64,000 bases of DNA, taken from contig CAWDOY010000009.1 in assembly GCA_963803975.1 (NCBI GenBank), positions 88,040 through 152,039 on the forward strand. The letters run 5' to 3'. Shown here in pieces: positions 45,965 to 62,283 of the stretch; within the stretch, counting starts at the first letter, position 1; each line of letters opens with the position of its first letter. Under the pieces are notes generated by a model that did no database searches, had not been told where the DNA came from, and saw nothing but the letters and a program-made list of their open reading frames with translations. The translations under genes were made by a program, and so were the position numbers. Source of the stretch: an uncultured delta proteobacterium (GTDB lineage: Bacteria > Desulfobacterota > WTBG01 > CAIYCZ01).

Positions 45965-47409
45965 CTACTTCTTCTTCAGTTTTAAAAACTGTGCAATCCC
46001 TTCTGCACAGGCATCAAGCACTACGGGCTTGTTTATATACTGCTGTCGCGGTGTTATTTCATACGCCGGCGGGTAGGCGTTGTCAAAATAGAGCTGCTGG
46101 AAATTGGAAAATTTGAGCTGATGGGACGTGGAATCCACAACCACGGTCTGGCTTTTTTTCACCAGCCCCAGCGATACCGCTTTCTTCAGCCCTGCCAGTG
46201 CTTCCCCGCCCTGGGTGCACACAACATGGCCATAGCGATTGGCCTCCAGCATGCTCTCGATAATCTGCTGTTCCTCCACCGCAACAGCCATAAACCGTTC
46301 CTGAAAATGGTCCCGCACCAGGTTCTGCACCTTGGGGAATGAGACCGGGTCGCCGATCATGGCTGCCTGGGCAACACTGGGCTGCACCTTCATCGGCTGG
46401 TAGCTGTCCGCTCTCCTGCCACTGCACGACCGGATTGGCATGGGTGCTCTGGACCCCGAGGATGCAGGGCAGCTCAGGGATAATGTTTAAATCATACAGG
46501 TCAAGAAAACCCTCCATGATGGCAGTGACATTGCCGGCGTTGCCTATGGGGACCACCACCACCAGGTCACTGGTATTATAGCACAACTGCTGGGCAATTT
46601 CATAGGCATAGGATTTCTGTCCCATGATGCGGATCGGGTTCTTGGAATTGAGCAGGCAGACCTGGTAGTTTTCCGCAAGCTCCTCCACTATCTTCATGCA
46701 GTCGTCAAACACCCCGGGAATCTCGATCACCAGCGCGCCGCTGCCCAGCGGCTGGGAGAGCTGCTGGGGCGTAACCCTGCCCTGGGGCAGAAGCACCACC
46801 GATTTCACCACCTGTTTATCAAGATAGCTCAAATAGAGCGCTGCAGCAGCCGAGGTGTCGCCGGTTGACGCGCAGATGCCAAGCACCTCTTTCAGGCCCC
46901 GGGTCCTGATGGAGTAGTTTATAAAGCTTACGGCGCTTGCCATGCCGCGGTCTTTGAAGCTTGCAGACGGATTAAACCCGTCGTTTTTTACAAAAAAATC
47001 AAGGCCCGCACGCGCGCTCAACTCCGGATTTGCCCGCACCAGGGCCGTATGCCCTTCCCCCAGATAGATGATATCCTGCAGCGGGATGGTCGGAAACAGG
47101 ATCTCCTTGAATAAAAAAATTCCCTGCAGGCTTTCGGTGCGCAGCAGCTTCCGGTAATCAAAGATCTTCTGCCACAGCGCTCCCGGTATCTTTTTCAGGC
47201 TGGCAAAATCCCGGTTGCGCAGTCTGAGCAGGCTTCTGCACTGCGGGCAGGTATAAAGGAACTGATCAATGCGGTAGCAGCTGCCGCAGTCAATGCACTC
47301 ATAAACCACATCACCGGTATAGTCAGGAATCAGCCAGGGTCTGATATCAGCGGGAAAATCTTCCAGGCAGGGGCGCTGGTGCCTTGAGATTGTGAGATAG
47401 CTCGGGCAT
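45965..47409 (-). CDS. thrC: Threonine synthase; frameshifts near 47360 and 46410
   Basis: LGEGHT, NPSASFKDRG, CASTGDTSAA, PIGNAGN, IGDPVS. Confidence 0.9.
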
Positions 47410-47557
47410 AGGGAATAATTATTTATACGTTTAATAGTACGCTATACTAAATCAATCGGCAAGTCAATAACTGTCAATAACGGGAATAAAGAAGCTCCTG
47501 CATTGACAATAGCTCCCCGGCCACAGTACAATGCACCTCAAAGGATGGCCCAGTTGC

Positions 47558-49427
47558 ATGGAACAGACATCACCTGAAGTTATCGCACAGCTGGCGCAGC
47601 TGCCGAAACTGCCCGGCGTGTACCTGATGAAGGACCGCGGCGGCGCGGTCCTGTACGTGGGCAAGGCTAAGAACCTGAAAAACCGCGTCAGGTCCTATTT
47701 CCAGCGCCTCCAGGATCAGCGCCAGAAAGTCCAGGTCCTGGTTGGAAAGATTGCCGGCATTGACACCATTGTCACGCAGAGCGAAAAAGAAGCCCTCATT
47801 CTGGAAAACACCCTCATTAAAAAGTACCGGCCCCGCTTTAACGTGACCTACCGGGATGATAAAAATTATCCCTATCTGCGGCTCTCGCTCGATGAAGCAT
47901 ACCCGGCCCTCACCATCGCCCGCCAGGCAAAGCCTGACGGAGCCCGTTATTTCGGCCCGTTTGCCTCTGCCCAGGCAGTACGGGAGACGCTCAAGCTCAT
48001 CAACCTGATATTTCCCCTGCGCAAATGCCATGGCCGGCGCCTGGAGAAGAAGCGGCCCTGCATCTACTACCAGCTGGGTCAGTGCCCTGCTCCCTGCTGC
48101 TGCCATGGTTGACCCCGAAGAATATAAAAAAACCGTCCACGACGTGCAGCTTTTTCTTCAGGGCCGCAGCCGGGAGGTCATAGCCTCATTAAAGAAAAAA
48201 ATGGAGCTTGAGTCCCAGTCCCTGCACTTTGAACAGGCCGCCCGCACCCGTGACCGCATCCAGGCTCTGGTAAAAACCCTGGAGAAGCAGGCCATGGTGA
48301 GCCTTGATTTTATTGACCGGGACGTTTTTTCTTTCTACCGGGAAGGGGAACGAATGGAGGTGGTGGTGCTGTTTGTTCGCAGCGGCAGGTTGAGCGGCAC
48401 CCGCAGCTTCAGCTTGCGCAACCTCACCCTGAGCGATGCCGAGGCCCTCTCCTCATTCCTTACCCAGTACTATGATCAGGGAAAGTTTATCCCCCCTGAG
48501 GTGATCATTCCCCTGCAGCTCCCGGACCGGGAGCTGCTTATTGAATGGCTTAAGGAAACCAGGGGGGAGCCGGTAAAAATAACAGTGCCGCTGCAGGGCC
48601 CCCGCTATGAGCTTTTGAAAATGGCTGCGCAAAATGCCGAAATTCTCTTTCGCCGGGAGTACCTTGCGCAGCCGGACGATGTTCTGGCTGCGCTGCAGGA
48701 GAAGTTGGGACTGAAGCGCTACCCGCGCCGTATTGCCTGCTTTGATATATCAAATATTATGGGCACCTCTGCCGTGGGCTCTGCGGTGCTGTTTCTGGAC
48801 GGCCGGCCGGCCAGGCACGAATACCGGCGGTTCCGCATCAAGACCGTGCAGCAGGCAGATGACTATGCCATGATGTATGAAGTGCTCTCCCGGTATCTCA
48901 GCCGGGCTCAAAGAGAGGAAACGCTTCCTGACCTGATCATGGTTGACGGCGGCAAAGGGCAGCTCGGCGTTCTCATCAGGGCGCTTGAGGAGAACCGTAT
49001 CGTCAGCGTTGATGCCATCTCGCTGGCAAAGGCCAAAAACCGGGGTAAACGGCCTGCCGCTACTCGTGCGGAAGAAGAGAAGATCTGCCTGCCGCACCGT
49101 AAAAACCCCCTGATTCTTTCCCGCCAGTCCCCGCTGCTGCTGCTCCTGCAGCGGATTCGTAATGAAGCACACCGCTTTGCCATCACCTACCACCACCAGC
49201 TGAAAGCAAAAAAGGACCTTACGTCCTCCCTCCAGTCTATCGCGGGCATCGGCACCAAAACAGCGCAGAAGCTGCTGCGCCATTTCGGCAGCATCGAGCG
49301 CCTGCAGGAGGCCGGTCTTGAGGAGCTTTCGCAGCTTTCTTTCCTGAATAAAAAAACCGCGCTGCTGGTGTATGATTTTTTCCATGGGGAGAAAAACGGG
49401 GGTCTACCTTCGCGCCCGCCCGGCTGA
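47558..49427 (+). CDS. uvrC: Excinuclease ABC subunit C; frameshift near 48105
   Basis: GIY-YIG ([14 protein letters not shown]), [20 protein letters not shown], HhH. Confidence 0.95.
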
Positions 49428-51094
49428 CAACTCAGCGCGGGGCACTTCCCATCCGGTGCTGATCAGCAGTTTATAGAAGGCTTGCGACTGAGAGATGATA
49501 ATTTTGGTGTGCGCCTGCAGCTCTTCAACTATTTCCTCTTTGACCGCCGGGGCGGTAACCTTTTGTATCTGCTCTAAGCCGGACCGTCACAAAGGAGAGA
49601 TAGTCAAGCATCTTAGTGGTAATGACTTCCCTGAGCGGGTCGATTTCTGCAATCTGGATGTTGGAGGAAATTTCATCAAGCGCGGCTATTTTCTGCTGGG
49701 CATCCGAACCGCTGCCGGCATCAAGATCAAGGCTCTCGTGCTTTTCATCGATAATAACCCGCTTCAGGCTGTGCAGCTTCTTGAGGAATACCGATATTGC
49801 CTGCAGCCGCGTCTGAATTCGATGCAATAGCTTATCATCAGTGAGCTGCCGCTCCCGGAGCAGTTTCAGATCCTTGCCGATCTTCTTGAGCGGGTTGTGA
49901 ATATTATTGATGGTGCTGGTGGAGAGCGCCTGTATGGCACGAACTCTGCGCTCCTGCAGCACCCGCTCGGGGATGCGCGGCGACCGTTCCGCCCGGGCCG
50001 CATCGGGAATTTCCTCTTCCATGCGGAAGCGCAGGGGATAATAGGAGGCCAGCTCTCCCAGGGTCTGGGGCTCGTCCGGCGGCAGTTCAGGTCTTTCTTC
50101 ATGCAGTCACGCTGAAGATGTTGAGGCGCGGAAAAATGAGCACCAGCCGCACATCGGGGTCAAGCATAGTGCTCTGCAGGAGAAAATGGGCCAGCAACAC
50201 ATATTCATTGAATAACAGCTTTACATAAAACAGCTCAGCCGGGGAAAAGTCCTTTTTCCCCAGCCCGGTGGCGGCAAATTTGTCCATAAGCGCCTGCTCG
50301 TCGAACGCAAAATGATAGCCCTTGTGCTGAATAAACTGCAGGGGACGGGTGGGGGCATCAATTTTGAACATGCGCGGCTGGTACTGCCCGTTGCCGGTGG
50401 TGGTGCCGATGAAATTGCAGCGCAGGGTATGTTCGCTGATAAGGGACACGAAACTTGTCTCCTGCATCACCAGGGGGAGACATACGCAGCTTGCTTCGTT
50501 TTCGTTTTCCATCACAATATGAAACGTGACCCCCGGCTCTTTAAGGCCGAGCTTTTCCGTCTCCCGCACCGCTTCCATTAACTTCCCGACGGTTTCCTCG
50601 GGTGTGGAGCTGTTGGAACTGATGAGCACTTCATCCAGGAAGCGCCGCGCATCCCTGATTCCGTAATAGGCATCGCCGAGGCCGAAGCAGACCCTGAACC
50701 CGAGGTCAAGGGTCATAAGGCGGTGCATCAGAAATTTCCGCTCCCCGATTTCCCTGAGCCGGAAAATGAACACATCGAGGATGTTGCCGATGATGTAGTC
50801 GTAATTTTCCAGAAGCTCGCCGGTACCGGGATCAGTGGCCATGGTGAGTATCAGGCTCTTCATCAGCTCATTCACCGTTGCCTCAGAGGAGCCCTGCTTG
50901 AGTCCCCTGGTCAGCTTAAACGTGACCTTGATCTGCTGCCCCTGGAAGGCAATGTCGGCGTTTTCCGCAAAGTTTCCCTCAAAATAGCAGCCCTGCTTGA
51001 ACCACAGGTCGGTCATCTCCCGTACGACCGCACGCTCAACCTGAAACAGCTTGCGCTTGGGCATATCCGAGGTTTTAATTTGTGCTAAGTTCAT
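49404..51094 (-). CDS. Hypothetical protein (about 560 aa after joining frameshifts near 50105 and 49580) with a degenerate HisKA-like segment
   Basis: Frames join by single-base shifts; ERRVRAIQALSTSTINNIHNPL resembles an H-box helix. Confidence 0.55.
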
Positions 51095-51226
51095 ATCCTC
51101 AACATCAAAGCGGAAGCAGCTGGTTCACCACGCTCATAAGCACGGCCAGCCGTTTAAATATATATCAATATATAACAGGTATAATGCGTCTGTCGATAGA
51201 AAAAAGCAGCTGTTTTCAGACGGTAA

Positions 51227-51499
51227 TCATCCCGGGGAAGCACGCTGCTTCATGTTTATAAGATATTTAATGTCAGCGCGGATCTGCTTGAGCGTCATGC
51301 CGCTGCGGCCTATGGCAAAGAACCCGATCGCCCAGAGCGGTACGGTGATCGTGTGCCACAGCTCTGCAACCGGTACGTCATAAAAAACCCACACCAGGCA
51401 GGCACCGGCGAGAACATATCCCGCCAGCTGCTTGAAAAACTGCTGCGCCGGGCGCCGCTGTGTTTCGTTGCCGGAATCCAGCAATGCTTCCTGTTCCAT
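51227..51499 (-). pseudogene. Probable internally deleted lysylphosphatidylglycerol-synthase-TM (YbhN/flippase-like) gene
   Basis: N-terminal GYVLAGACLVWVFYDV joined directly to C-terminal-type TVPLWAIGFFAIGRSGMTL. Confidence 0.45.
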
Positions 51500-51585
51500 A
51501 CCTGTTCCGGAACGCGTTCAGTACACTAACCTCAAGCACGACTTTTATTATATCATGTAACCTGTGCCCGCGACACAATAACCCA

Positions 51586-52158
51586 TTATTTCATATCCTT
51601 TCTCTGTATTCTCGTCCAGAAAAAATGGCCCGTCCAGAGCAGTGTGCCCAGAAGCGCTATCATGAGAATAAGCTGCAGTTCATGCTGCCTGATGTCTCTC
51701 AGCACTATTTCCAGTGCAGCACCAAAACAATACCCCCCGGCAGCAAACACGGTTGTCCAGATTAACCCGCTCGCTATGTTCAGCGTCAAAAATCGCGTCC
51801 GTGCTATGCCGCTCATGCCAATGACAAACGGCGCGACAATGCGCATGCCGTACATAAAGCGAAAGCCGACAATAACCAGGTTCTGGTTGCGCTGCAGCAG
51901 TTCCCGGAACCGCACGCTGCGGGCATACAGCGCCGGCCGTTTTTCAAGAAAATCCTGGCCGTAGATTCTGCCCATGAAGTAGAGAACCTGGTCACAAACA
52001 ATCGTTGCCGACGAGGCAATAAGGATTACCAGGGGAAGCGACAGATAGCCCCGATGTGCAGCAAACCCGGCAATTACCAGAATCGTTTCCCCTTCTATAA
52101 GCGCTCCCAGCAGCAGGGCGACATAACCATAGGTCTGGATAAGGTACTCTGCGGACAT
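51586..52158 (-). CDS. DedA family membrane protein
   Basis: YGYVALLLGALIEGETILVIAG, DQVLYFMGR, RFMYGMR. Confidence 0.9.
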   Translation of the reverse strand: MSAEYLIQTYGYVALLLGALIEGETILVIAGFAAHRGYLSLPLVILIASSATIVCDQVLYFMGRIYGQDFLEKRPALYARSVRFRELLQRNQNLVIVGFRFMYGMRIVAPFVIGMSGIARTRFLTLNIASGLIWTTVFAAGGYCFGAALEIVLRDIRQHELQLILMIALLGTLLWTGHFFWTRIQRKDMK

Positions 52159-52340: not shown

Positions 52341-52958
52341 ATGAAAATAGTCCTTCTCTCAATCGCTTCATATCTGTACGGCGCCATACCCTTTGCCTAC
52401 CTGGCAACCTGGCTTCTCACCGGTAAAAAGCTGACTGAGGAGGGGACCGGCAATATCGGCGTGACCAATGCCTACAAGGTTGGCGGTACCGGGGCAATCA
52501 TCATCACCCTCCTGGGTGAAATCTCAAAGGCAGCACTGCCGATTTATGCAGCACGGTTTCTCTTTGGAGATGATCTTTTCAGCATGCTGCTGGCTGCGTT
52601 CAGCGCGCTGGTCGGCACCAGCTTTTCACTGTTTCTCAAAGGCAGGGGCGGCAAAGGCAGCACCGTTGCCATCTGGACCATCCTTATTCTTTCTCCCCTT
52701 GCCGGCGTCATGATGCTCACCACCTGGGGAGCCCTCGCTGTCTGGGCACGCACCAACATTATCGTTAAAAAGCTGCAGCTCATCTGCATTCCGGGTATTA
52801 TCTATCTGGTTGAGCGGGACCTTGTTTTCACCGCATTCGGCATTCTCACCAGCATCCTGTTTCTGCTCACCGGTTATATCCGTAAAGATGATTTCGCGTA
52901 TTACAATGTCTTCCAACAAAGGGCAGGGGCAAAAGATGCGGACTCGCTACATCCGTAA
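52341..52958 (+). CDS. PlsY-like (glycerol-3-phosphate acyltransferase family) membrane protein, divergent
   Basis: YLYGAIPF, GTGNIGVTN, RGGKG; motif-3 HxxNxxR not visible. Confidence 0.8.
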   Translation: MKIVLLSIASYLYGAIPFAYLATWLLTGKKLTEEGTGNIGVTNAYKVGGTGAIIITLLGEISKAALPIYAARFLFGDDLFSMLLAAFSALVGTSFSLFLKGRGGKGSTVAIWTILILSPLAGVMMLTTWGALAVWARTNIIVKKLQLICIPGIIYLVERDLVFTAFGILTSILFLLTGYIRKDDFAYYNVFQQRAGAKDADSLHP

Positions 52959-55278
52959 TCTCAAAGAGGAACAGCATCCGCACCATATCGGCACCAAGGC
53001 TCATGCCCTGGGGTTCCTGCTGAAGCGGGGCTATCGGGTGCCCCCGACCTGGGTCTGCACCTGGGACGCCTTTTCGCAATTCCGCAAAGGGGATGCGAAC
53101 ATAACAGCGGCCGTTACCGCAGAGCTTGCTTCCCTGATGCAGCCGCATACCGCATATGCGGTGCGCTCTTCAGCAAATGTTGAGGACGGCCAGCAGTATT
53201 CCTTTGCCGGCCAGTTTAAAAGCATCCTCAATGTCATTGGCATCGATGCCATGGTAGCTGCCATCCGCACCATCTGGGAGTCAACCGCTGCCCCGGTCGT
53301 GCAGTCATATGCAAAAAAAATCGGCATTGATCAGGACAGCCTGAAAATGGCGGTGATTATCCAGGAGATGGTGGCCCCGAAGTTTTCCGGTGTGTCATTC
53401 AGCAGAAACCCCATAACCGGCATGGATGAGACCGTGGTTGAAGCGGTCACGGGCAGCAGCGGTGCGCTGCTTCAGGAAGGCGTCACCCCGCAGCGCTGGA
53501 TCCATAAATGGGGAGAGTGGATAGCGCTCCCCGAGCATGAAGACCTGCCCCGTGACATTATCCAGGAGGTCGTTACCCGGACCAGGGAAATTGCCCGGTC
53601 CTACGGAAAGCCGGTGGATCTCGAGTGGGCCTATGACGGTACCACACTCTACTGGGTGCAGCTGCGGGAGATCACCTCGCTTAAAAACCTCAATGTCTAT
53701 TCAAATTACATAGCCAAGGAAGTTCTCCCGGGCATCATCAAGCCCCTGGTCTGGTCGGTTAACGTCCCCATGGTCAACAGCGCCTGGAAACAATTTCTCT
53801 CCGAGCTGATCGGTGATCTTGACATTGACGCCCAGGCACTTGCCAAACCCTTTTATTATCGGGCCTATTTTAACATGGGCGTGATCGGCAGCATCTTTGC
53901 CGCCCTGGGGCTGCCTCCTGAAACCATTGAGCTGCTTATGGGCATTTATCGGGAAGGCGCGGAAAAGCCTTCTTTCAGGCTCACGCCGAAAATGCTGCTG
54001 CGCCTGCCGCGCATCCTGCGCTTTACCCTGGGGAAGATTCGCTATGCCCGGAAGTTCCCGGCGCTCTTCCCGGAGATGAAAGCACACTACCAGGCGTTCT
54101 GCAGCGCTCCCGTAGACCGGCTCAGCGAGGCAGAGCTTATGCAGCAGATAGATAAGCTTTTCCTGTTATCACAGCAGACCGCCTACTATAATATTATCGT
54201 CCAGCTGCTGATGGGCCTCTATAACGTGCTGCTCAAGTGGCAGCTGAAGAAGCTGGGCGTTGATTTTACCTGCTTTGACCTGACCGAAGACATGGAAGAG
54301 CTGAAAGAGTTTGACCCTGCCATCCATATGCTGGTCATGAACCAGCAGTTCCGGCAGCTCTCTGACGGGTTAAAGGAGCAGATTGCCGGCAGCACCTATA
54401 AAGAGTTCTGCGCGCTTCCCGGCATCGCGCTTCTGCAGAAGGAATTAACCCGGTTCCTGGAGCGCTTCGGCCATTTAAGCGACAGCGGCAATGATTTCTC
54501 GGCAGCACCGTGGCGGGAAAAACCGGACGTTATTCTCAGGATAATCACCACCTCGCAGCAGGCTGAAAACCAGTCAGCGAGAAATATCTGCTATGAGGAG
54601 CTGCGCATGTCAGCACTTCGCCGCATGCTGCTCAGCCCGCTCTATCATAAAGCCCGCTTCTTCAGGCTCTGCCGGGAAGAGGTTAGCTTCTTGTACACCT
54701 TCGGCTACGGCCTGTTCCGCACCTGTTTTCTGGCCCTGGCGGATATATGGACGGCAAAGGGCTTTCTTGCGGAACGGGATGACATCTTTTACCTTTGCCT
54801 TGATGAGATAAAAGCCGTTATCGAGAAAGGTCATATGGATCCGGTTCACGCAGAGGCTATTGCCGTGCGCAAGCGCGAGATTCAGGAATGCCGGGAGATG
54901 ACCCTGCCCAATATCATTTACGGCGACCACCCGCCGCCGCTTATGAATCATACCGGCAGCCGTCTGAAGGGCACTCCCACGTCACGGGGATATTTTCGCG
55001 GGGCCGTGAAAGTGGTGCGCGGCATTGAGGATTTTGCCAAGGTTGAGACCGGCAGTGTTCTGGTCATCCCCTATTCTGATGTGGGCTGGACACCGCTGTT
55101 TACCAAAGCCGGGGCCATCATTGCAGAATCAGGCGGCATACTGTCCCACAGCTCCATCATTGCCCGGGAATATAACATCCCGGCGGTGGTCTCAGTGTCC
55201 GGGGCCTGCCAGCTTAAAGACAATACCGTAGTGAGCGTTGACGGGTATCTGGGCGAGATATTAATTCATCAGCCGTGA
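52936..55278 (+). CDS. PEP-synthase/rifampin-phosphotransferase-type dikinase (ATP-grasp, substrate domain, C-terminal phospho-His domain)
   Basis: GTKA, AVRSSANVED...SFAGQF, DLEWA, QLREIT, GGILSHSSIIAREYNIP. Confidence 0.88.
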   Translation: MRTRYIRNLKEEQHPHHIGTKAHALGFLLKRGYRVPPTWVCTWDAFSQFRKGDANITAAVTAELASLMQPHTAYAVRSSANVEDGQQYSFAGQFKSILNVIGIDAMVAAIRTIWESTAAPVVQSYAKKIGIDQDSLKMAVIIQEMVAPKFSGVSFSRNPITGMDETVVEAVTGSSGALLQEGVTPQRWIHKWGEWIALPEHEDLPRDIIQEVVTRTREIARSYGKPVDLEWAYDGTTLYWVQLREITSLKNLNVYSNYIAKEVLPGIIKPLVWSVNVPMVNSAWKQFLSELIGDLDIDAQALAKPFYYRAYFNMGVIGSIFAALGLPPETIELLMGIYREGAEKPSFRLTPKMLLRLPRILRFTLGKIRYARKFPALFPEMKAHYQAFCSAPVDRLSEAELMQQIDKLFLLSQQTAYYNIIVQLLMGLYNVLLKWQLKKLGVDFTCFDLTEDMEELKEFDPAIHMLVMNQQFRQLSDGLKEQIAGSTYKEFCALPGIALLQKELTRFLERFGHLSDSGNDFSAAPWREKPDVILRIITTSQQAENQSARNICYEELRMSALRRMLLSPLYHKARFFRLCREEVSFLYTFGYGLFRTCFLALADIWTAKGFLAERDDIFYLCLDEIKAVIEKGHMDPVHAEAIAVRKREIQECREMTLPNIIYGDHPPPLMNHTGSRLKGTPTSRGYFRGAVKVVRGIEDFAKVETGSVLVIPYSDVGWTPLFTKAGAIIAESGGILSHSSIIAREYNIPAVVSVSGACQLKDNTVVSVDGYLGEILIHQP

Positions 55279-55535: not shown

Positions 55536-56492
55536 ATGTCAGCACCTGACAAGATTAAACTGGGAATAAGCTCCTGCCTGCTCGGCAACAACGTGCGCTA
55601 TGACGGCGGGCATGCCTGGGACCGGTTTCTGACCGACACCCTGGGGCAGTATGTTGCCTACGTGCCCGTCTGCCCGGAGGTTGAATGCGGCTTCAGCATT
55701 CCCCGCGAGGCGCTGCGCCTGGTCGGAAGCCCTGATGCGCCGCGACTGGTAACAGTCAAAAGCGGACAGGACCATACCGGGAGGATGCTTACCTGGGCGC
55801 GCGGCAAGGTTGAAGAGCTGGAGAAGGAACAGCTGTGCGGTTTTATCTTCAAAAGCAAATCGCCAAGCAGCGGCATGGAGCGGGTTAAAATATATGATGA
55901 GCATGGCGTTCCCGCAAAAAAAGGGGTGGGCCTGTTTGCCCGCGCCTTCATGGAGCACTTTCCCCTGCTGCCGGCGGAAGATGAGGGGCGGCTCCACGAC
56001 CCGGCTTTGCGTGAAAATTTCATCGAGCGCATCTTTACCTGCCAGCGCTGGCGGGAGGTAGTGCAGCAGAAAAAGAGTATCGGCGCGCTGGTCGCTTTTC
56101 ATACCCGGCACAAGCTTCTCATCCTCTCCCACAGCCCGAAACACTATCAGGCAATGGGCAAGCTGGTTGCCGCGGCACAGAAGAATGCGCTCTCCAGCCT
56201 CTATGACCAGTACCAGACCATGCTCATGGAAGCCCTGCGCATTAAGGCAACTGCCAGCAAACACAGCAATGTCCTGCAGCACATGATGGGATACTTTAAA
56301 GCTGAGCTCTCAGCTGATGAAAAACAGGAACTGCTGGAAACGATTGACCGCTATCGGCGGGGGCTGCTGCCGCTCATTGTGCCCGTAACGCTCATCAGCC
56401 ATTACGTGCGCAAATACGACCAGCCCTATCTGAAAGATCAATATTATCTCAACCCGCACCCGATAGAGCTTCAGTTGCGAAATCATGTGTAG
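55536..56492 (+). CDS. DUF523 + DUF1722 (YbbK/YbgA) protein
   Basis: GISSCLLGNNVRYDG, VCPEVE, KSPSSG, NVLQHMMGYF, YLKDQYYL. Confidence 0.9.
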   Translation: MSAPDKIKLGISSCLLGNNVRYDGGHAWDRFLTDTLGQYVAYVPVCPEVECGFSIPREALRLVGSPDAPRLVTVKSGQDHTGRMLTWARGKVEELEKEQLCGFIFKSKSPSSGMERVKIYDEHGVPAKKGVGLFARAFMEHFPLLPAEDEGRLHDPALRENFIERIFTCQRWREVVQQKKSIGALVAFHTRHKLLILSHSPKHYQAMGKLVAAAQKNALSSLYDQYQTMLMEALRIKATASKHSNVLQHMMGYFKAELSADEKQELLETIDRYRRGLLPLIVPVTLISHYVRKYDQPYLKDQYYLNPHPIELQLRNHV

Positions 56493-56521
56493 CGCTGCCC
56501 GGTAAAACAGAAGGAGAAGCT

Positions 56522-56959
56522 ATGCGCGAAGATATACAGGCTTTGATCTGCAGGAACAATCACTGCGTGCTTGCCACCGCGGTCGGCAACAGACCACATT
56601 GCTCTCTGATGTCCTACACTGCTGACCAGCAGGGCCGGGAACTCTACATGATCACGCTGAGAAACACGCAGAAGTTTGAGAACCTGCTCGCCAACCCTCA
56701 GGTGAGTGTTCTTATCGATACCCGGGAGCAAGATACCGGCAGCCGGAGAGGCCGGGCAAAAGCAGTGACTGTGAGCGGCGTATTTCAGTCAATAACTGAC
56801 CAGGGAAAAAAAGACTCAGTCCGCGCGCAGCTGGCAGCAGCGCACCCCCATCTGCAGGAGCTTGCCGCCCGCGCTGAGGCAGAACCATTTTCCATTATTG
56901 TGGAGTCTGTTTTACTGCTGGAGGGAGTTACGGAAGCCTATTTTGAAGAAGTGCGGTAA
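56522..56959 (+). CDS. Pyridoxamine 5'-phosphate oxidase family protein
   Basis: CVLAT...PHCSLM, TQKFENLLANPQVSVLID. Confidence 0.85.
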   Translation: MREDIQALICRNNHCVLATAVGNRPHCSLMSYTADQQGRELYMITLRNTQKFENLLANPQVSVLIDTREQDTGSRRGRAKAVTVSGVFQSITDQGKKDSVRAQLAAAHPHLQELAARAEAEPFSIIVESVLLLEGVTEAYFEEVR

Positions 56960-56987
56960 ACCATGTTGCGGAAAGCGGTGAGACCCT

Positions 56988-57908
56988 TCAGCCCAGAATA
57001 TTGTTCAGGGCTCCCCGTGCTGACGGGTAGTGAAATGCATAACCTGCCTGGAGAAGCCGTGCGGGCAGCGCCCGCTGCCCTGATAAAATAAGCTCGTCAG
57101 CCATTTCTCCCAGGGCCAGGTGCATGACAAAGCCCGGTACCGGCAGCCATGACGGCCGCCCCAGGGCAGTTCCCACCTCAACAAAGAAGTCTTTTGCGTT
57201 GAGCGGCTGCGGAGATGAAAGGTTGAAAGCGCCCTGCGCGGCATCCTGTTCCAGCAGGAAACAGATGGCGCTCACTTCATCCTCCATGTGGACCCATGAA
57301 AGCCATTGCCTGCCGCTTCCCATGCAGCCTCCCATGAAGAGTTTGAAAGGCAGCAGCACCCGTGAGAGAAATCCGCCGCCGCGGCCGAGCACGATCCCGG
57401 TGCGGATGATCGCGCGCCTCACCCCCAGCGCCTCAACCGGCTCCGTTGACTTTTCCCACTGTATTGCCACGTCACTTAAAAACCCGGTCCCGGCAGAAGA
57501 TGTCTCATCCAGCACCGTATCCCCGCGATTGCCGTAATAGCCGATCCCTGATGCCTGGATGACCACCCGGGGCTTGCGCGCTGACAGAGTTACCGCCTCT
57601 ACGATTGCCCTGCCTGCCGCAAGCCTGCTCTGTAGAATTGCCGTTTTCCGCGCCGGCGTCCACCTGCCGGCGGCGATATTTTCCCCGGCCAGATTGATGA
57701 TGCCGTATGCGCCGTCCACATAATGGCCCCATCCATTGGCGCTCCTTCCATCCCAGGCGACAACCTTAACCTGGCTGCTGTTGAAAGCTGCCGCTTTCCC
57801 CGGATTCCGGGAAAGCACGACAACGTGGTAATTTCTGGCAACCAGTTTTTTTACCAGTACTGTTCCGATGAAACCAGTGGCGCCGCTGATGATGACTGTT
57901 TGAGACAT
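56988..57908 (-). CDS. TIGR01777/YfcH-family NAD-dependent epimerase
   Basis: SGATGFIG, INLAGENI, ASGIGYYG, GSGRQWLSWVH. Confidence 0.9.
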   Translation of the reverse strand: MSQTVIISGATGFIGTVLVKKLVARNYHVVVLSRNPGKAAAFNSSQVKVVAWDGRSANGWGHYVDGAYGIINLAGENIAAGRWTPARKTAILQSRLAAGRAIVEAVTLSARKPRVVIQASGIGYYGNRGDTVLDETSSAGTGFLSDVAIQWEKSTEPVEALGVRRAIIRTGIVLGRGGGFLSRVLLPFKLFMGGCMGSGRQWLSWVHMEDEVSAICFLLEQDAAQGAFNLSSPQPLNAKDFFVEVGTALGRPSWLPVPGFVMHLALGEMADELILSGQRALPARLLQAGYAFHYPSARGALNNILG

Positions 57909-57994: not shown

Positions 57995-58591
57995 CTATTG
58001 CAGTGCTGAAGTGCCCGCTATAAGCAGCATGATGCCCTTGCGCACCATCATCACCCCGATTGCGGCAAGGATGAGGCTGGCAAGCTTTGATATGGTCCGG
58101 GTGCCTGCCCTGCCGAGCACCCGTATGATTGTATCGGCCAGCAGGAACACGATCCCGACGATGGCAATGTTGAAAACAATAGCAGCTACCGTCGGCACGG
58201 TGCCGTACTGGCTGCTGAGGAGAATGGTAGCGGTGAGCACTCCCGGCCCCACGATCAGCGGAACGCCCAGGGGAACCGCTCCCACCGAGTCCTGATCGAT
58301 CTGCAGCCGGCGCTTTTCCGACCCGATCAAATCGCTGAGGGAAATCACAAACAAAAGCGCCCCGCCGGCTATCATGAAATCAGCTACCGTGATGCCCAGA
58401 AGCGATAGAATGATGCGGCCGATAAAAAGAAACAAGAGCGCTACCACCATGGCGGTGATGACTGACTCAAATATGACGCGCCGGATCCGCGCCCTGTCCA
58501 GCCCCTGCGTCAGGCTGACAAAGAGCGGCAGAAGCCCCAGCGCATCCATTGCCACAAACAGGGGAACGAAACAGAGCCAGAAATTATTCAT
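57995..58591 (-). CDS. MarC family membrane protein
   Basis: PLFVAMD, FMIAGGALL, VPLGVPLIVGPG, ILAAIGV. Confidence 0.9.
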   Translation of the reverse strand: MNNFWLCFVPLFVAMDALGLLPLFVSLTQGLDRARIRRVIFESVITAMVVALLFLFIGRIILSLLGITVADFMIAGGALLFVISLSDLIGSEKRRLQIDQDSVGAVPLGVPLIVGPGVLTATILLSSQYGTVPTVAAIVFNIAIVGIVFLLADTIIRVLGRAGTRTISKLASLILAAIGVMMVRKGIMLLIAGTSALQ

Positions 58592-59823
58592 GGTGAGCTG
58601 CTTGATTGATTACACAAGAAGCGCTGCCGCAACTGTAGAAAAGGGCCTGCACCCGGCACGCAACCGCTATGCCTTTTCAAAGCCGAAGCGGTCAAAGATA
58701 TCTTCATAACGCGCCACGATCTGCTCGCGGGAAAGATTGAACTTTTCGAGCGAGTATTCATGCTTGCTTTTATATGAGCGGGCCTTTTCTTCCTCGCGCT
58801 GAATAATCTTATTAAAAGCAGGCGATAGCTCAAAGCCGAAGCTTTGTATAGATGTCGATCACCGCTTGCGCGGGACGCGTTACCAGTGCCTGGTAGGTGA
58901 TCACCTGCTGCCGCTCAGCGGGCATCCGGTCAAGACGGGTGAGCGGGTAGCGATAATAACAGTCCAGCATCTTCATCTGCAGGTCAAGAAACGGGCAGGG
59001 CTCTATCGGGCTGAGAAAGGTATTGAAATAAAAGGTCAGCAGGCTGACTGCCGAAGGCACTGTTTCAAACGGGGTGCGTGCCATGCAGATGAATTTCGCA
59101 TCGGGAAATGTTTCATTCAGCGACCCCACCATGGCGCTGAACAGGGGGTTCTTTGACAGAAAGCGCTTTTCTCTCCCGAACACGTACAGATGGTTCTGCA
59201 CGCAGCGCTGGTAAAAGGCCATGATTTTCCCCCGCTGCGCAGCATCCTTCATCTCCGGGTCCAGAAGAATGTACGGCCACAGATCATCCAGAAACGGCAG
59301 CACAAAGCCGAGGAACGCCGATGAAAAAATATGCAGCAGGATAATGCCGTCTTCCTCTGCCTCGAACAGGCTGATCGGATGTATCTTTGCCAGGTTTTTA
59401 AGAGACCGTTTTTCCAATGCCCGTATCAGCCGGTAGAGCGGGCTGCCGCAGAGCGCATCAAGGGCGCCGATGGTGTTATAAAATTTTTTCTGGATAATTG
59501 ACGGGGCAAACAGGATTTCCCAGAACTTCATGGACGTGAACTGTTCTTCATCCCGGGCCAGGAGGCGATGGAGGAAGGTGGTCCCGCTGCGCGGCACCCC
59601 GACGATAAAAACCGGCTCACGGATTAGCAGGTTCCGGCAGTCCCCGGAACAGAATGCTGTCCAGCAGAAAACCGAGCCAGTTGGTTATCTCCACCGCGCC
59701 GTAGAGAACTGCCATCAGCAGCAAAATAAAGATGCGCTTGGGGGTAAGCCGCGCATTGGTGCCGCGGGTGTGAAACAGTGTCCGGTATGCCAGACGGAAG
59801 AACAGTTTAAAATTGAACGCCAT
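58588..59823 (-). CDS. PAPS-dependent sulfotransferase; frameshifts near 59630 and 58835
   Basis: PVFIVGVPRSGTTFLHRLL (5'-PSB motif), LSKNP, R.P....S; C-terminal H.YSLEKF in a shifted frame. Confidence 0.85.
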
Positions 59824-59860
59824 GGAAACAAAACGCCTTTCACTAAAAACAGGAGCTGCG

Positions 59861-60832
59861 CTAAATCTGATCTCCCGGTTTCCAGTCGTAAATCAGGGCG
59901 GGGTTATGTATGTAGCGTATGAAGTTTTCATAAAACGGGAACCCCTCTCCCGCGTCAAACGCCCGGTGGTCCATGTTGCACATGATTGACATGACGCTGC
60001 GCACCACTATTTTCCCGTCAATGACCAGCGGCGCCTCGTGAAGGTCCCCGATCCCCAGAAAGAATACCTCCGGAGGTATGATCACGGTTACCGTCTGCAC
60101 GCCGGGCAGCATCATGCCGATATTTGCCAGGGTGCAGGTTGCGCCGAGGATGTCTTCCGGCTGGAGCTTGTCTTTTTCCGGCACCTTGTCGGTTTCCGGG
60201 TCCTTCGCGATGCCGGTCAGGAACCGGGCCCGCAAATACACCAGCAGCGTGTACAGCCCGCTCAGGTCAAACTCCCGCAGCGCAGTCCGGATAAGCACTT
60301 TCGCTGCCTTGTGATAGAGTTCGTCCTGGTTGGTCCGGCGCGCCTTTCTGGTTAAAACGCGCATCTCCTGCGCCACGGTCTCCAGGTCCTTCTGGTGCGG
60401 GTTGCGGAGAATGGGGCGCACAACGCCCGTGGGCGTGCTCACGGTGAAGCTGAGATTGATATCTTCGGCGTGATACAGCGTGCCGCCATGGGCAAGCGGA
60501 CGGTAGTCAAGAAACCCGTTCAGGCAGGGCACATGGTGCAGGCTGTGCGCATAGGCTTTAAGGAAAAAGGCGGAAAAATTTTTCCGGATGGCGCGCCGGA
60601 ACAGGCGCTTTTCCTGGCTTTCTCCGGGGACAGCGGCAAGGTCACTTTCAGAGTCCTTAGCGTATTCCACCAGCGGGGTGACATCGATCTGCATAATCAT
60701 CGCCGCGTGGGGAATTGTCCGTGCGGCTTCCGATAAAAGGTAGGCAACGCTCTCGCGCAGCAGACCGAAGCGCTTTGCTTCCCGGACCTTGACATGCTGC
60801 AGCTGATAGGCAATCTTGTAGGGCTTGAACAT
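59861..60832 (-). CDS. Stand-alone 2-oxoacid dehydrogenase E2-type acyltransferase catalytic domain (no lipoyl domain)
   Basis: IPH, IDVTPL, INLSFTVSTPTGVVRP, TLANIG, DHRAFD. Confidence 0.82.
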   Translation of the reverse strand: MFKPYKIAYQLQHVKVREAKRFGLLRESVAYLLSEAARTIPHAAMIMQIDVTPLVEYAKDSESDLAAVPGESQEKRLFRRAIRKNFSAFFLKAYAHSLHHVPCLNGFLDYRPLAHGGTLYHAEDINLSFTVSTPTGVVRPILRNPHQKDLETVAQEMRVLTRKARRTNQDELYHKAAKVLIRTALREFDLSGLYTLLVYLRARFLTGIAKDPETDKVPEKDKLQPEDILGATCTLANIGMMLPGVQTVTVIIPPEVFFLGIGDLHEAPLVIDGKIVVRSVMSIMCNMDHRAFDAGEGFPFYENFIRYIHNPALIYDWKPGDQI

Positions 60833-61170
60833 TTCCCGGAACTTTCTATGCTGGGTTTCTGTTTATATACGTTTGTAGAATAAAGGTCTTTAAGCTGTCA
60901 AGGGAAAACCATTGTCTTCCCCTGCCGACTTCATATAAATAACTGTTCAGCGCACTAAACTTTATTTTTTTTCGCTGAAATTGTGTTATACTTTGTGCAA
61001 AAGCGTTGAACTGAAATCCGCTCCATGGATTAAAATACCCGAACATTTTAAACGTTCTGTTTCAATCTGTCAGGCCCTTTGAAAATCCCGGCATTATAAT
61101 CAGAACAAACTTCCCGCAGGCACATCGGGAGCGATTTATATTCATCACCAAAGGAGGAACATAACGACCC

Positions 61171-62283
61171 ATGAACAGGCAAACCATCACCGTAGTCGGT
61201 GCCAACGGCTTTATCGGCAGCAGGCTTATCGCCGAGGCGCTGCTTAACAATACCCGCGTCATCGGGCTGGCCCGCAAAAAACGCAAGCAGGCACCGGAGA
61301 AGAGAGTGTTCGATGAGCTTGAAGATAACCTCAGCCAGGAGCAGATCGAGCAGTACCGGGGAAATCTCACCATCTATGACTATGACATCAATGAGCCGCA
61401 GATCGGCCTCTCTGATGCGGCCCTTAAAGACATACTTGATTCCAGCCGCAATATTTTTAATTGCGTGGGGGATACCACGTTCTTCCCGCGCGACAAGGAG
61501 AAGCTGTTCGATACCAACATAAACGGCCCCGCCTCCCTCGTTGAAGTGCTGTGCCGGAATAAAGCGGTGTTTCATCACGTGAGCACTGCCTATGTCTCCG
61601 GAAGCCGCTCAGGAGTGATTTTAGAGTCTGAGCTTGATGTGGGGCAGCGCTTTAAAAACCCCTACGAGGAGAGCAAATGCCTGGGTGAGAAGAAAGTTCA
61701 CGAGGTATGCGCCCGTCAATCGGTTCCCTACAATGTTTTCCGGCCGAGCATTGTCATCAGAAAACACGCCATTCCCGGCAAGACGCCGCATCTCAACCAC
61801 TTTTATCTGTTCTTCAGCGTACTGGATAACCTGCACCGGGATATTGAGAAGCAGTCAACGGTCATGAGTGACGGCTATTATCATGTTCCGGTCCGGTTTC
61901 TCGGCTCTACAAAATCAACCCTTAACTTTGTGGATCTTGATTTCTGCTGCCAGGCGCTGTTCCACATCGGCATAAAACAGCATGACGGAAATAAAACCTA
62001 TCATCTCACCAATCCCCGGCCCATGCTGAATGCTGATTTTATGAATGCCATCATGGAGATCTATAAAATCAGAGGCTTCACGGACGTGGAGAACCGCGCG
62101 GATTTCACCAATCTCAACGCCCACGAGAAGATGATCCAGACCTGGCTGTCAAATTATAATGATTACTTTTTTATAAACCCGGTCTTTGATACCGCGAATG
62201 TGCTGGCCGGACTGCAGGGCACCGCCATCAGCCACCCTGTTTTCAACCAGGACTACATTGCCCGTGCAATAGGGCGTTTGTAA
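61171..62283 (+). CDS. Extended SDR, fatty acyl-CoA/thioester reductase-like (NAD_binding_4)
   Basis: GANGFIG, HVSTAYVSG, YEESK, FRPSIV. Confidence 0.82.
   Translation: MNRQTITVVGANGFIGSRLIAEALLNNTRVIGLARKKRKQAPEKRVFDELEDNLSQEQIEQYRGNLTIYDYDINEPQIGLSDAALKDILDSSRNIFNCVGDTTFFPRDKEKLFDTNINGPASLVEVLCRNKAVFHHVSTAYVSGSRSGVILESELDVGQRFKNPYEESKCLGEKKVHEVCARQSVPYNVFRPSIVIRKHAIPGKTPHLNHFYLFFSVLDNLHRDIEKQSTVMSDGYYHVPVRFLGSTKSTLNFVDLDFCCQALFHIGIKQHDGNKTYHLTNPRPMLNADFMNAIMEIYKIRGFTDVENRADFTNLNAHEKMIQTWLSNYNDYFFINPVFDTANVLAGLQGTAISHPVFNQDYIARAIGRL

Follow-up and report, generated by a model that had tools for sequence, protein, structure and literature searches.

A PlsY-fold membrane protein coupled to an RPH-type dikinase: a candidate membrane module acting on a hydrophobic substrate

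The locus and its two genes

What does a PlsY-like membrane protein do when its gene overlaps that of a dikinase related to rifampin phosphotransferase (RPH)? This question is raised by a locus in a 64,000-nucleotide stretch of contig CAWDOY010000009.1 from an uncultured delta proteobacterium (the window), whose host, going by the labels of sequencing runs and by synteny with L006, we infer to be a sediment or freshwater bacterium. A sequence-only reading had suggested a new lipid phosphorylation or acylation system. We found that the linkage of both genes is genuine; their coupling, the gene fusions and the rewired active site of the membrane protein form the established part of the model presented here. 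Taken jointly over three readings (a lipid kinase, an acylating pair and a pigment defence), the pair very likely is a membrane module that uses phospho-histidine chemistry on a hydrophobic substrate other than glycerol-3-phosphate (G3P). Tentatively, we favour a two-part accessory membrane enzyme that would phosphorylate a membrane-embedded hydrophobic acceptor. The two genes are:

52341..52958, plus strand: PlsY-fold membrane protein of the "type A" clade, 205 aa (PF02660 with 96.4 bits against the Pfam cut-off of 24.1, AF2 model, residue map)
52936..55278, plus strand: RPH-type small-molecule dikinase, 780 aa, with ATP-grasp, helical acceptor domain and C-terminal phospho-His swivel domain (H738)

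The 23-nt overlap claimed earlier is borne out by these open reading frames (ORFs), the dikinase starting with the ATG at 52936 and stopping at 55278. The dikinase of relatives is likewise 780 aa long. The codon of His738 (55147-55149) lies within LSHSSIIARE. The assembly contains single-base insertion errors at 48106, 49579 and 50106, where the extra bases are absent from independent runs. Within 52341-55278, no indel was found among the rows listed (6 indel rows apart), and contigs of two other runs cross the PlsY/dikinase junction ungapped. The ratio of nonsynonymous to synonymous substitution rates (dN/dS) was 0.26 for the PlsY-like gene and 0.17 for the dikinase against the same-genus genome G001, and 0.50 and 0.25 against L022, where changes are few. 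Contigs of RNA run X18 cover part of the PlsY-like gene, which is not proof of transcription or co-transcription. A promoter scan returned 3 sites, all facing dedA, against 1.1 expected, and was left unused as evidence.

Linkage and fusion across genomes

A search for conserved adjacency or fusion of PF02660 with the dikinase domains, as proposed by the sequence-only reading, found both. Among 41 related genomes, the dikinase subfamily occurs in 12 (a 30% match in G009 was left out) and the type A PlsY-like gene in 12; both are present in 11, and in 9 of these they are adjacent. The dikinase stands alone in G019, 716 bases from the start of its contig, and the PlsY-like gene in G034, which is 87% complete. 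Among 74 metagenome dikinase loci, 7 are fused with a PlsY-like gene, 40 are adjacent to one, 5 have one within about 2 kb and 22, mostly at contig ends, are without a same-strand partner. Where at least 1 kb was available on both sides, a same-strand PlsY-like gene is present in 36 of 41 loci. Of 251 genomes in the class to which an Anaerolineales genome belongs, 15 encode the dikinase. A PlsY-like neighbour was seen at 11 of these 15 loci; of the four without one, three are short or break off close by.

Fusions are frequent. All but one of the 25 longer PlsY-like homologs carry PPDK_N as part of a dikinase fusion, and dikinase sequence is present in 13 of the 33 best representatives of 50% clusters. 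Labels or cluster members of the fusions, mostly labels of metagenome-assembled genomes, comprise Nostoc commune and other cyanobacteria, Dehalococcoidales, Bathyarchaeia (as members of fusion clusters) and Thermotogota. The single-chain version of Nostoc commune (P0265, WP_109008606.1) gave no match against plasmids at 1e-60. A phylum sample, with 2 candidates scored per genome, was positive in 5 of 401 genomes, all of the window's class. A single-protein scan of genome contigs delivered 2 loci only, and in the ESM Atlas the matches were confined to generic PF02660 and chelatase clusters.

A short contig that is 98% identical to the window dikinase (L010, G018:C495) sits in a genome of another family. 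G018 has its own 44% copy of the dikinase as well; the L010 contig is probably mis-binned or recently transferred.

The PlsY-like partner

The AF2 model of the membrane protein (pLDDT 89) matches Aquifex aeolicus PlsY (aaPlsY, PDB 5XJ5) with Z 21.3 and a root-mean-square deviation of 2.8 over 185 aligned residues, and the next match reaches Z 6.8. The PlsY equivalog TIGR00023 scores 75.1, under its cut-off of 137.2. Motif 1 (GTGNIGVTN) and motif 2 (GGKG) are present as described earlier, and the reported loss of GH and of motif 3 holds as well: GH reads GT (G92-T93) and HxxNxxR reads YIRKDD. None of the 33 top representatives (50% clusters) shows an HxxNxxR-type motif.

Residue roles in aaPlsY were taken from the accessible part of PMC5700162 and mapped onto the window protein by alignment. 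HMMER aligned 5XJ5 just to residue 139; the C-terminal residues were mapped by a MAFFT alignment with 15 canonical-type proteins. The G3P phosphate clamp S35/R45/K104/N180 corresponds to T36/K46/K105/R181 (the N180 column stems from the MAFFT alignment, not from 5XJ5), the contacts to the G3P 2-OH, S142 and H177, correspond to I140 and G178, and D184 stands at the position of R183. A histidine in the H177 column occurs in 15 of 15 canonical sequences and is absent among the top residues of every other group. According to the same portion of PMC5700162, the S35T mutant of aaPlsY retains 17% activity and R45K less than 10%, His177 is indispensable, and Asn37 serves acyl-transfer catalysis while touching neither substrate. 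Of the acyl-phosphate site, the membrane protein retains N38, T42 and the glycine loop (G103/G106). His92 is lost: the window protein has T93, and T is found in 98% of 121 aligned sequences. GT[SC]F and KDD are conserved family-wide in 120 homologs at 50-97% identity, and the conserved acidic DD at the C-terminus is located at the former G3P site.

The membrane protein retains the PlsY fold and the phosphate-hole loop and, judging from these residues, has lost the G3P pocket. It shares with PlsY (5XJ5; PF02660, TIGR00023) the fold, Asn37, Thr41 and the GGKG phosphate-hole loop. Unlike PlsY, it is without His92, Ser142, His177, Asn180 and Arg183, carries S35T, R45K and the DD at the G3P site, falls under the equivalog cut-off and is tied or fused to a dikinase, alongside a canonical plsY.

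The dikinase

The architecture described earlier (ATP-grasp, helical domain, C-terminal phospho-His domain with LSHSSIIARE, no pyruvate barrel) was confirmed. Pfam places PPDK_N at residues 63-190 and PEP-utilizers at 704-773 and detects no pyruvate-barrel family. RPH-Lm (5FBS/5HV1; NF041857) is the best PDB sequence match and provides the top six fold matches. Following the residues named in the accessible parts of PMC4844700 and PMC13534948, K21 (by position), R77, S96, E230, Q242, R244, R580, E581 and H738 correspond to the RPH catalytic residues K22, R117, T136, E297, Q309, R311, R666, E667 and H825, with R580-E581 representing the second-step pair R666-E667. K21, R77, E230, Q242, R244, R580, E581 and H738 are conserved throughout the subfamily; H738 is present in 76 of 76 sequences from the four tabulated groups.

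The phmmer alignment to RPH did not extend over residues 252-489, the part in which counterparts of the rifamycin-pocket residues (Q336/Q337, Y351, M359, V368) would lie. However, there are clear differences to RPH-Lm. Identity is about 20% over the structure alignment, and K670 is replaced by S584. Scores stay far under the family cut-offs: 207 bits against 999 for the NCBIfam RPH model, 164 against 740 for the phosphoenolpyruvate (PEP) synthase model TIGR01418, with the His domain at 704-773 of 780 residues and not central, and 179 against 1300 and 171 against 1350 for PigC and RedH. No pig/red prodiginine genes were found among the neighbours scanned. A hydropathy scan gave no clear transmembrane helix, the best 18-mer (mean 1.6) lying in the ATP-grasp domain. 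The dikinase is thus expected to work like an RPH-type enzyme, yet it appears to be neither RPH, PigC nor PEP synthase. RPH-like dikinases such as PigC/HapC, HpeHI and PpsAB share its domain order (ATP-grasp, helical, C-terminal His swivel). In contrast to them, the window dikinase has a membrane partner, and its recurrent neighbours lack prodiginine or aromatic-catabolism genes.

Another swivel-domain enzyme is Rv2047c, a mycobacterial reductase with a PEP-utilising swivel domain encoded in the pks12 operon. For this protein, phosphorylation of a long-chain lipid has been proposed in the accessible parts of PMC2443190 and PMC7058343, the former proposing a long alkyl chain as target. This activity is a proposal, and the dikinase match is confined to residues 606-777. 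In contrast to the window pair, the parts of these papers at hand describe no PlsY-like partner; no polyketide synthase is found here.

Two further observations concern dikinase-related genes. At L049:1496-4756, a short-chain dehydrogenase/reductase-type oxidoreductase is fused to a member of the dikinase subfamily (1086 aa), a layout that recalls the reductase and swivel domain of Rv2047c. Contig C53 of the window's genome carries a separate, full-length PPDK-like ORF, named by inspection.

Two partner clades

The dikinase is accompanied by PlsY-derived proteins of two types. Our unrooted tree of 71 PlsY proteins included every second type B row (21 of 41) and a narrow canonical sampling. Type A, the fusions and the cyanobacterial domains form one clade (support 100/99), and 20 of the 21 type B rows form a separate one (100/100), apart from canonical PlsY. 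Type B retains GH and GGxG and is without motif 1 and motif 3. Both clades keep G102/G105 of the phosphate-hole loop and both have lost the G3P pocket. In a FastTree tree of the dikinase (95 rows), A- and B-linked kinases interleave, with a minimum of 5 changes for A required by the starred branches. Both types are present in L060, one type only in the window's genome and in G427.

The clades differ in the residues they retain. Thr41, which contacts the acyl carbonyl, is kept in 12 of 15 type A proteins and is A or I in all 15 non-cyanobacterial fusions. His92 is lost in 15 of 15 type A proteins and kept in 41 of 41 of type B, and Asn37 is lost in type B. The position of R183, cationic in PlsY, is occupied by D in 34 of 35 sequences of the type A clade.

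Apart from this, L060:356-5457 is a single operon in which a type A-dikinase fusion stands together with a type B PlsY-like gene and a chelatase-like gene. In L038, L093 and L129, the PlsY-like protein accompanying the dikinase is of a third form on a long branch, and a chelatase-like gene is present as well; glycyl-radical (pyruvate formate-lyase-like) genes adjoin the loci of L038 and L093.

Canonical phospholipid routes

The sequence-only reading had considered that the dikinase might bypass PlsX/Fak, and a check for separate plsX and plsY genes found both. The window's genome encodes plsX, a Fak-like locus with Dak2 and DegV genes side by side, and a second plsY with canonical motifs. The latter is 76-86% identical to that of G003 and reads in three pieces; its frameshifts are probably assembly errors like those shown at the three nearby sites. 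A canonical-scoring plsY is present in 10 of 11 other dikinase-bearing relatives, the exception being G001 (91% complete). Because plsX, the Dak2/DegV locus and the canonical-motif plsY are all encoded, a PlsX/Fak bypass is unlikely, and the module would be an accessory one; the lost G3P pocket speaks against a bypass, too. Consequently, this part of the earlier proposal fell, while a lipid or membrane role with a DedA link, the RPH-type architecture and adjacency or fusion stood. In the PlsX/PlsY and FakAB/PlsY routes, a phosphate-activating enzyme likewise acts upstream of a PlsY fold; here, in contrast, the donor would be a phospho-His dikinase and the acceptor site would not be one for G3P, those routes being encoded elsewhere in the window's genome. 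Two of the 41 relatives gave a match to dgkA, and both lack the dikinase. Since dgkA is missing from 27 dikinase-less genomes as well, this pattern is uninformative on kinase substitution.

Candidate transport partners

A divergent dedA beside the pair, noted before, was verified by its VTT domain:

51586..52158, minus strand: dedA (VTT domain, PF09335 with 44 bits), candidate flippase of the module

DedA proteins are lipid flippases, and the DedA encoded here has weak UptA matches. Of the 12 genomes with the type A gene, 6 (G000, G003, G018, G030, G034, G036) have a DedA/VTT gene next to it; among the other six, three lack one, two loci run into a contig edge and one was not retrieved. A second candidate is a DUF3108-like protein with an N-terminal signal-like stretch and a weak Pfam match under the cut-off. 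Its gene is found in 17 of 41 relatives, namely in 13 of 13 that carry either module gene and in 4 of the 28 others, and in 9 of the 13 it adjoins the dikinase or sits at most 2 genes from the type A gene. In the window's genome it lies apart from the pair (C1:66866-67648). G030, G034 and G036 share the order PlsY-like, VTT, DUF3108-like, with the dikinase not beside them. MacB/FtsX permeases adjoin 21 of 50 type B loci versus 0 of 14 type A loci, and type B loci additionally carry ABC ATPases, LolA-like and chelatase-fold proteins. DedA/VTT and DUF3108-like genes track type A, whereas type B travels with MacB/LolCDE-like transporters. Alpha/beta hydrolases and flippases are among the neighbours, and a CDP-alcohol phosphatidyltransferase adjoins the dikinase in 2 loci.

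Proposed function and alternatives

In the lipid kinase that we tentatively favour, the acceptor would most likely be a lipid alcohol such as a polyprenol, a phytol-type or other long-chain alcohol, or a mono- or diradylglycerol. Going by the conserved residues and the known RPH mechanism, the ATP-grasp domain would place the beta-phosphate of ATP on His738, releasing AMP and Pi. The swivel domain may then travel to the helical domain, where R580/E581 would position the phosphate. The PlsY-fold partner could serve as the anchor of the enzyme, with the lipid or the lipid's phosphate bound in the groove and phosphate hole that it has retained; it is not expected to acylate G3P. The neighbours suggest that a DedA/VTT flippase and an exported DUF3108-like protein carry the substrate or product across the envelope; a MacB/LolCDE-like transporter might replace them in type B lineages. 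We favour phosphorylation because the fusions lack Thr41, type A proteins His92 and type B proteins Asn37, because some fusions bear archaeal labels and because known family members use hydroxyl acceptors. Bathyarchaeia make isoprenoid lipids. According to the accessible parts of PMC4844700 and PMC12167813, characterised RPH-family members phosphorylate hydroxyl or phenol acceptors. The proposal made for Rv2047c and the oxidoreductase-dikinase fusion of L049 point the same way.

However, several points weigh against a lipid kinase. Asn37 is invariant in 35 of 35 sequences of the type A clade and the window protein retains Thr41, both of which fit retained acyl transfer. By analogy to RPH, whose acceptor binds inside its own helical domain, a presenting partner seems not obviously needed. 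Cyanobacterial fusions have K-G in place of R580-E581, and thus substrates may differ across the family. The window's genome encodes another candidate lipid kinase (PF00781). G030 and G036 carry both genes unlinked, the G036 dikinase reading broken, and 5 of the 41 fully flanked loci have no PlsY-like gene on their own strand, although in one of these such a gene is encoded on the other strand. Furthermore, locus counts are inflated by kin and near-duplicates; hence no P value is given.

Possible, though doubtful, is a second scenario in which the dikinase turns a fatty acid or another membrane carboxylic acid into an acyl-phosphate and the PlsY fold acylates an acceptor other than G3P. This could be a lysolipid or glycolipid, for example, or else an amine that the acidic DD holds in place. 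Conversion of ATP to AMP and Pi would drive formation of the high-energy anhydride, and the pair would be an acyl-phosphate analogue of Aas/LplT lipid repair. It is favoured by invariant Asn37 and retained Thr41, and the kept glycine loop, the D at the R183 position, His92 in all type B proteins and the alpha/beta hydrolase and flippase neighbours are consistent with it. However, an acyl-phosphate is less plausible as the common substrate given that the fusions have lost Thr41 and type A has lost His92; in type B, Asn37 is gone. Fusions with archaeal labels exist, plsX and Dak2/DegV are already encoded, and we found no acyl-phosphate precedent in the RPH family. Two possible parallels were set aside: OxzB, considered as such a precedent, is listed under ThiF-like enzymes, and the accessible part of PMC13704108 did not bear out a link between the PlsY family and the carotenoid acyltransferase CruD.

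An unlikely alternative, mainly for type B, is a defence that would act during light or oxygen stress by modifying and exporting a hydrophobic pigment or xenobiotic, for instance one derived from the breakdown of tetrapyrroles or chlorophyll. Here, the dikinase would tag the compound with phosphate, the PlsY fold would bind it and transporters would expel it. Among 99 loci, 32 have a chelatase/ferrochelatase-fold neighbour, 3 TspO, 2 a photolyase, 2 a heliorhodopsin, 5 DUF2867 and 4 CIA30; matches to SOUL, PUCC and a chlorophyllase-like hydrolase and the cyanobacterial fusions point in the same direction. However, a chelatase-like neighbour is found in 0 of 14 type A loci, the chelatase-like family of the window's genome occurs in 32 of 41 relatives without tracking the dikinase, and such neighbours may simply mark a shared stress island. 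This membrane-anchored ferrochelatase-fold family is often multicopy among the 32 relatives and found in 0 of 8 in family f3; G000 has five paralogs (C3:168278-169717, C4:5652-7061, C9:3689-5161, C31:61458-62905, C32:3032-4478).

Very improbable is a PlsX/Fak-independent route to lysophosphatidic acid. The fold, the glycine loop and K104 are kept, the canonical plsY reads frameshifted in the window's assembly, and none was found in G001 at 91% completeness. However, S35 and R45 have become T and K, and S142, H177, N180 and R183 are lost; according to the accessible part of PMC5700162, S35T and R45K leave aaPlsY with little activity and His177 is indispensable. Moreover, a canonical-scoring plsY occurs in all but one of the 11 other relatives with the dikinase, and frameshifts at the three nearby sites were shown to be errors. 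Least credible of all is that the dikinase works on its own as a rifamycin phosphotransferase or PEP synthase and has its PlsY-like neighbour by chance: RPH-Lm provides the best structural and PDB matches and databases label the relatives as pyruvate,water dikinase, but the reading is largely refuted by the fusions and pervasive linkage, besides the low family scores, the missing pyruvate barrel, S584 in place of K670 and the separate PPDK-like ORF on C53.

Implications

Our literature searches, which covered neither subscription papers nor supplementary tables, found no publication describing a PlsY-dikinase pair. New here are the association of type A with DedA/VTT and DUF3108-like partners and the observation that two PlsY clades interchange on one dikinase family. 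Probably, a clade of "PlsY" annotations does not represent G3P acyltransferases. More speculatively, bacteria and archaea might share a lipid-activation chemistry in which the dikinase makes a high-energy or alkyl lipid phosphate, the PlsY fold uses it as donor for an undescribed lipid, and one of two interchangeable kits (DedA with the DUF3108-like carrier, or MacB/Lol-like) exports the product. If true, this module would include some of the archaeal genes that are counted as "plsY" and invoked for chimeric or bacterial-type lipids in archaea; the accessible part of PMC9385802 treats the function of lokiarchaeal PlsY homologs as unresolved, though these prompted a chimeric-lipid proposal. Moreover, a membrane-lipid role and a testable partner would be gained for a large branch of RPH-like dikinases that is uncharacterised and currently carries the annotation PEP synthase. 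The Nostoc commune fusion makes the chemistry testable in one protein.

Other features of the window

Two further features flank the pair:

51227..51499, minus strand: 90-aa remnant of an LPG-synthase-TM (UPF0104) gene with an in-frame internal deletion (blastp against the L006 protein)
55536..57908: downstream context with DUF523/DUF1722, PNPOx-like and TIGR01777 genes, recurrent and non-core

Residues 1-64 of the remnant match 31-95, and 51-82 match 346-377, of the intact 379-aa L006 protein (PF03706). The gene is probably not core to the module, because it was not found in G003. Downstream, the DUF523/1722 cluster recurs in 5 and the PNPOx-like gene in 7 of the 99 loci. Across 51205-52106 (900 bases with dedA and the LPG-synthase remnant), contigs of two runs join, the intervening letters not being known; this segment may be variable between strains.

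Region 45965-51094 contains thrC, uvrC and an unannotated 553-aa gene split by frameshifts. Given the indel errors of the assembly, other "broken gene" findings in the window's genome need care. The split gene (49437-51094, minus strand) belongs to a conserved protein of 553-588 aa without Pfam match, syntenic with uvrC in G003 and L006. Finally, 3 kb from the pair, 58588-62283 holds one or more sulfotransferase-family genes, a stand-alone 2-oxoacid-dehydrogenase acyltransferase domain and a male-sterility-type reductase, possibly a fatty alcohol or sulfated lipid cluster.

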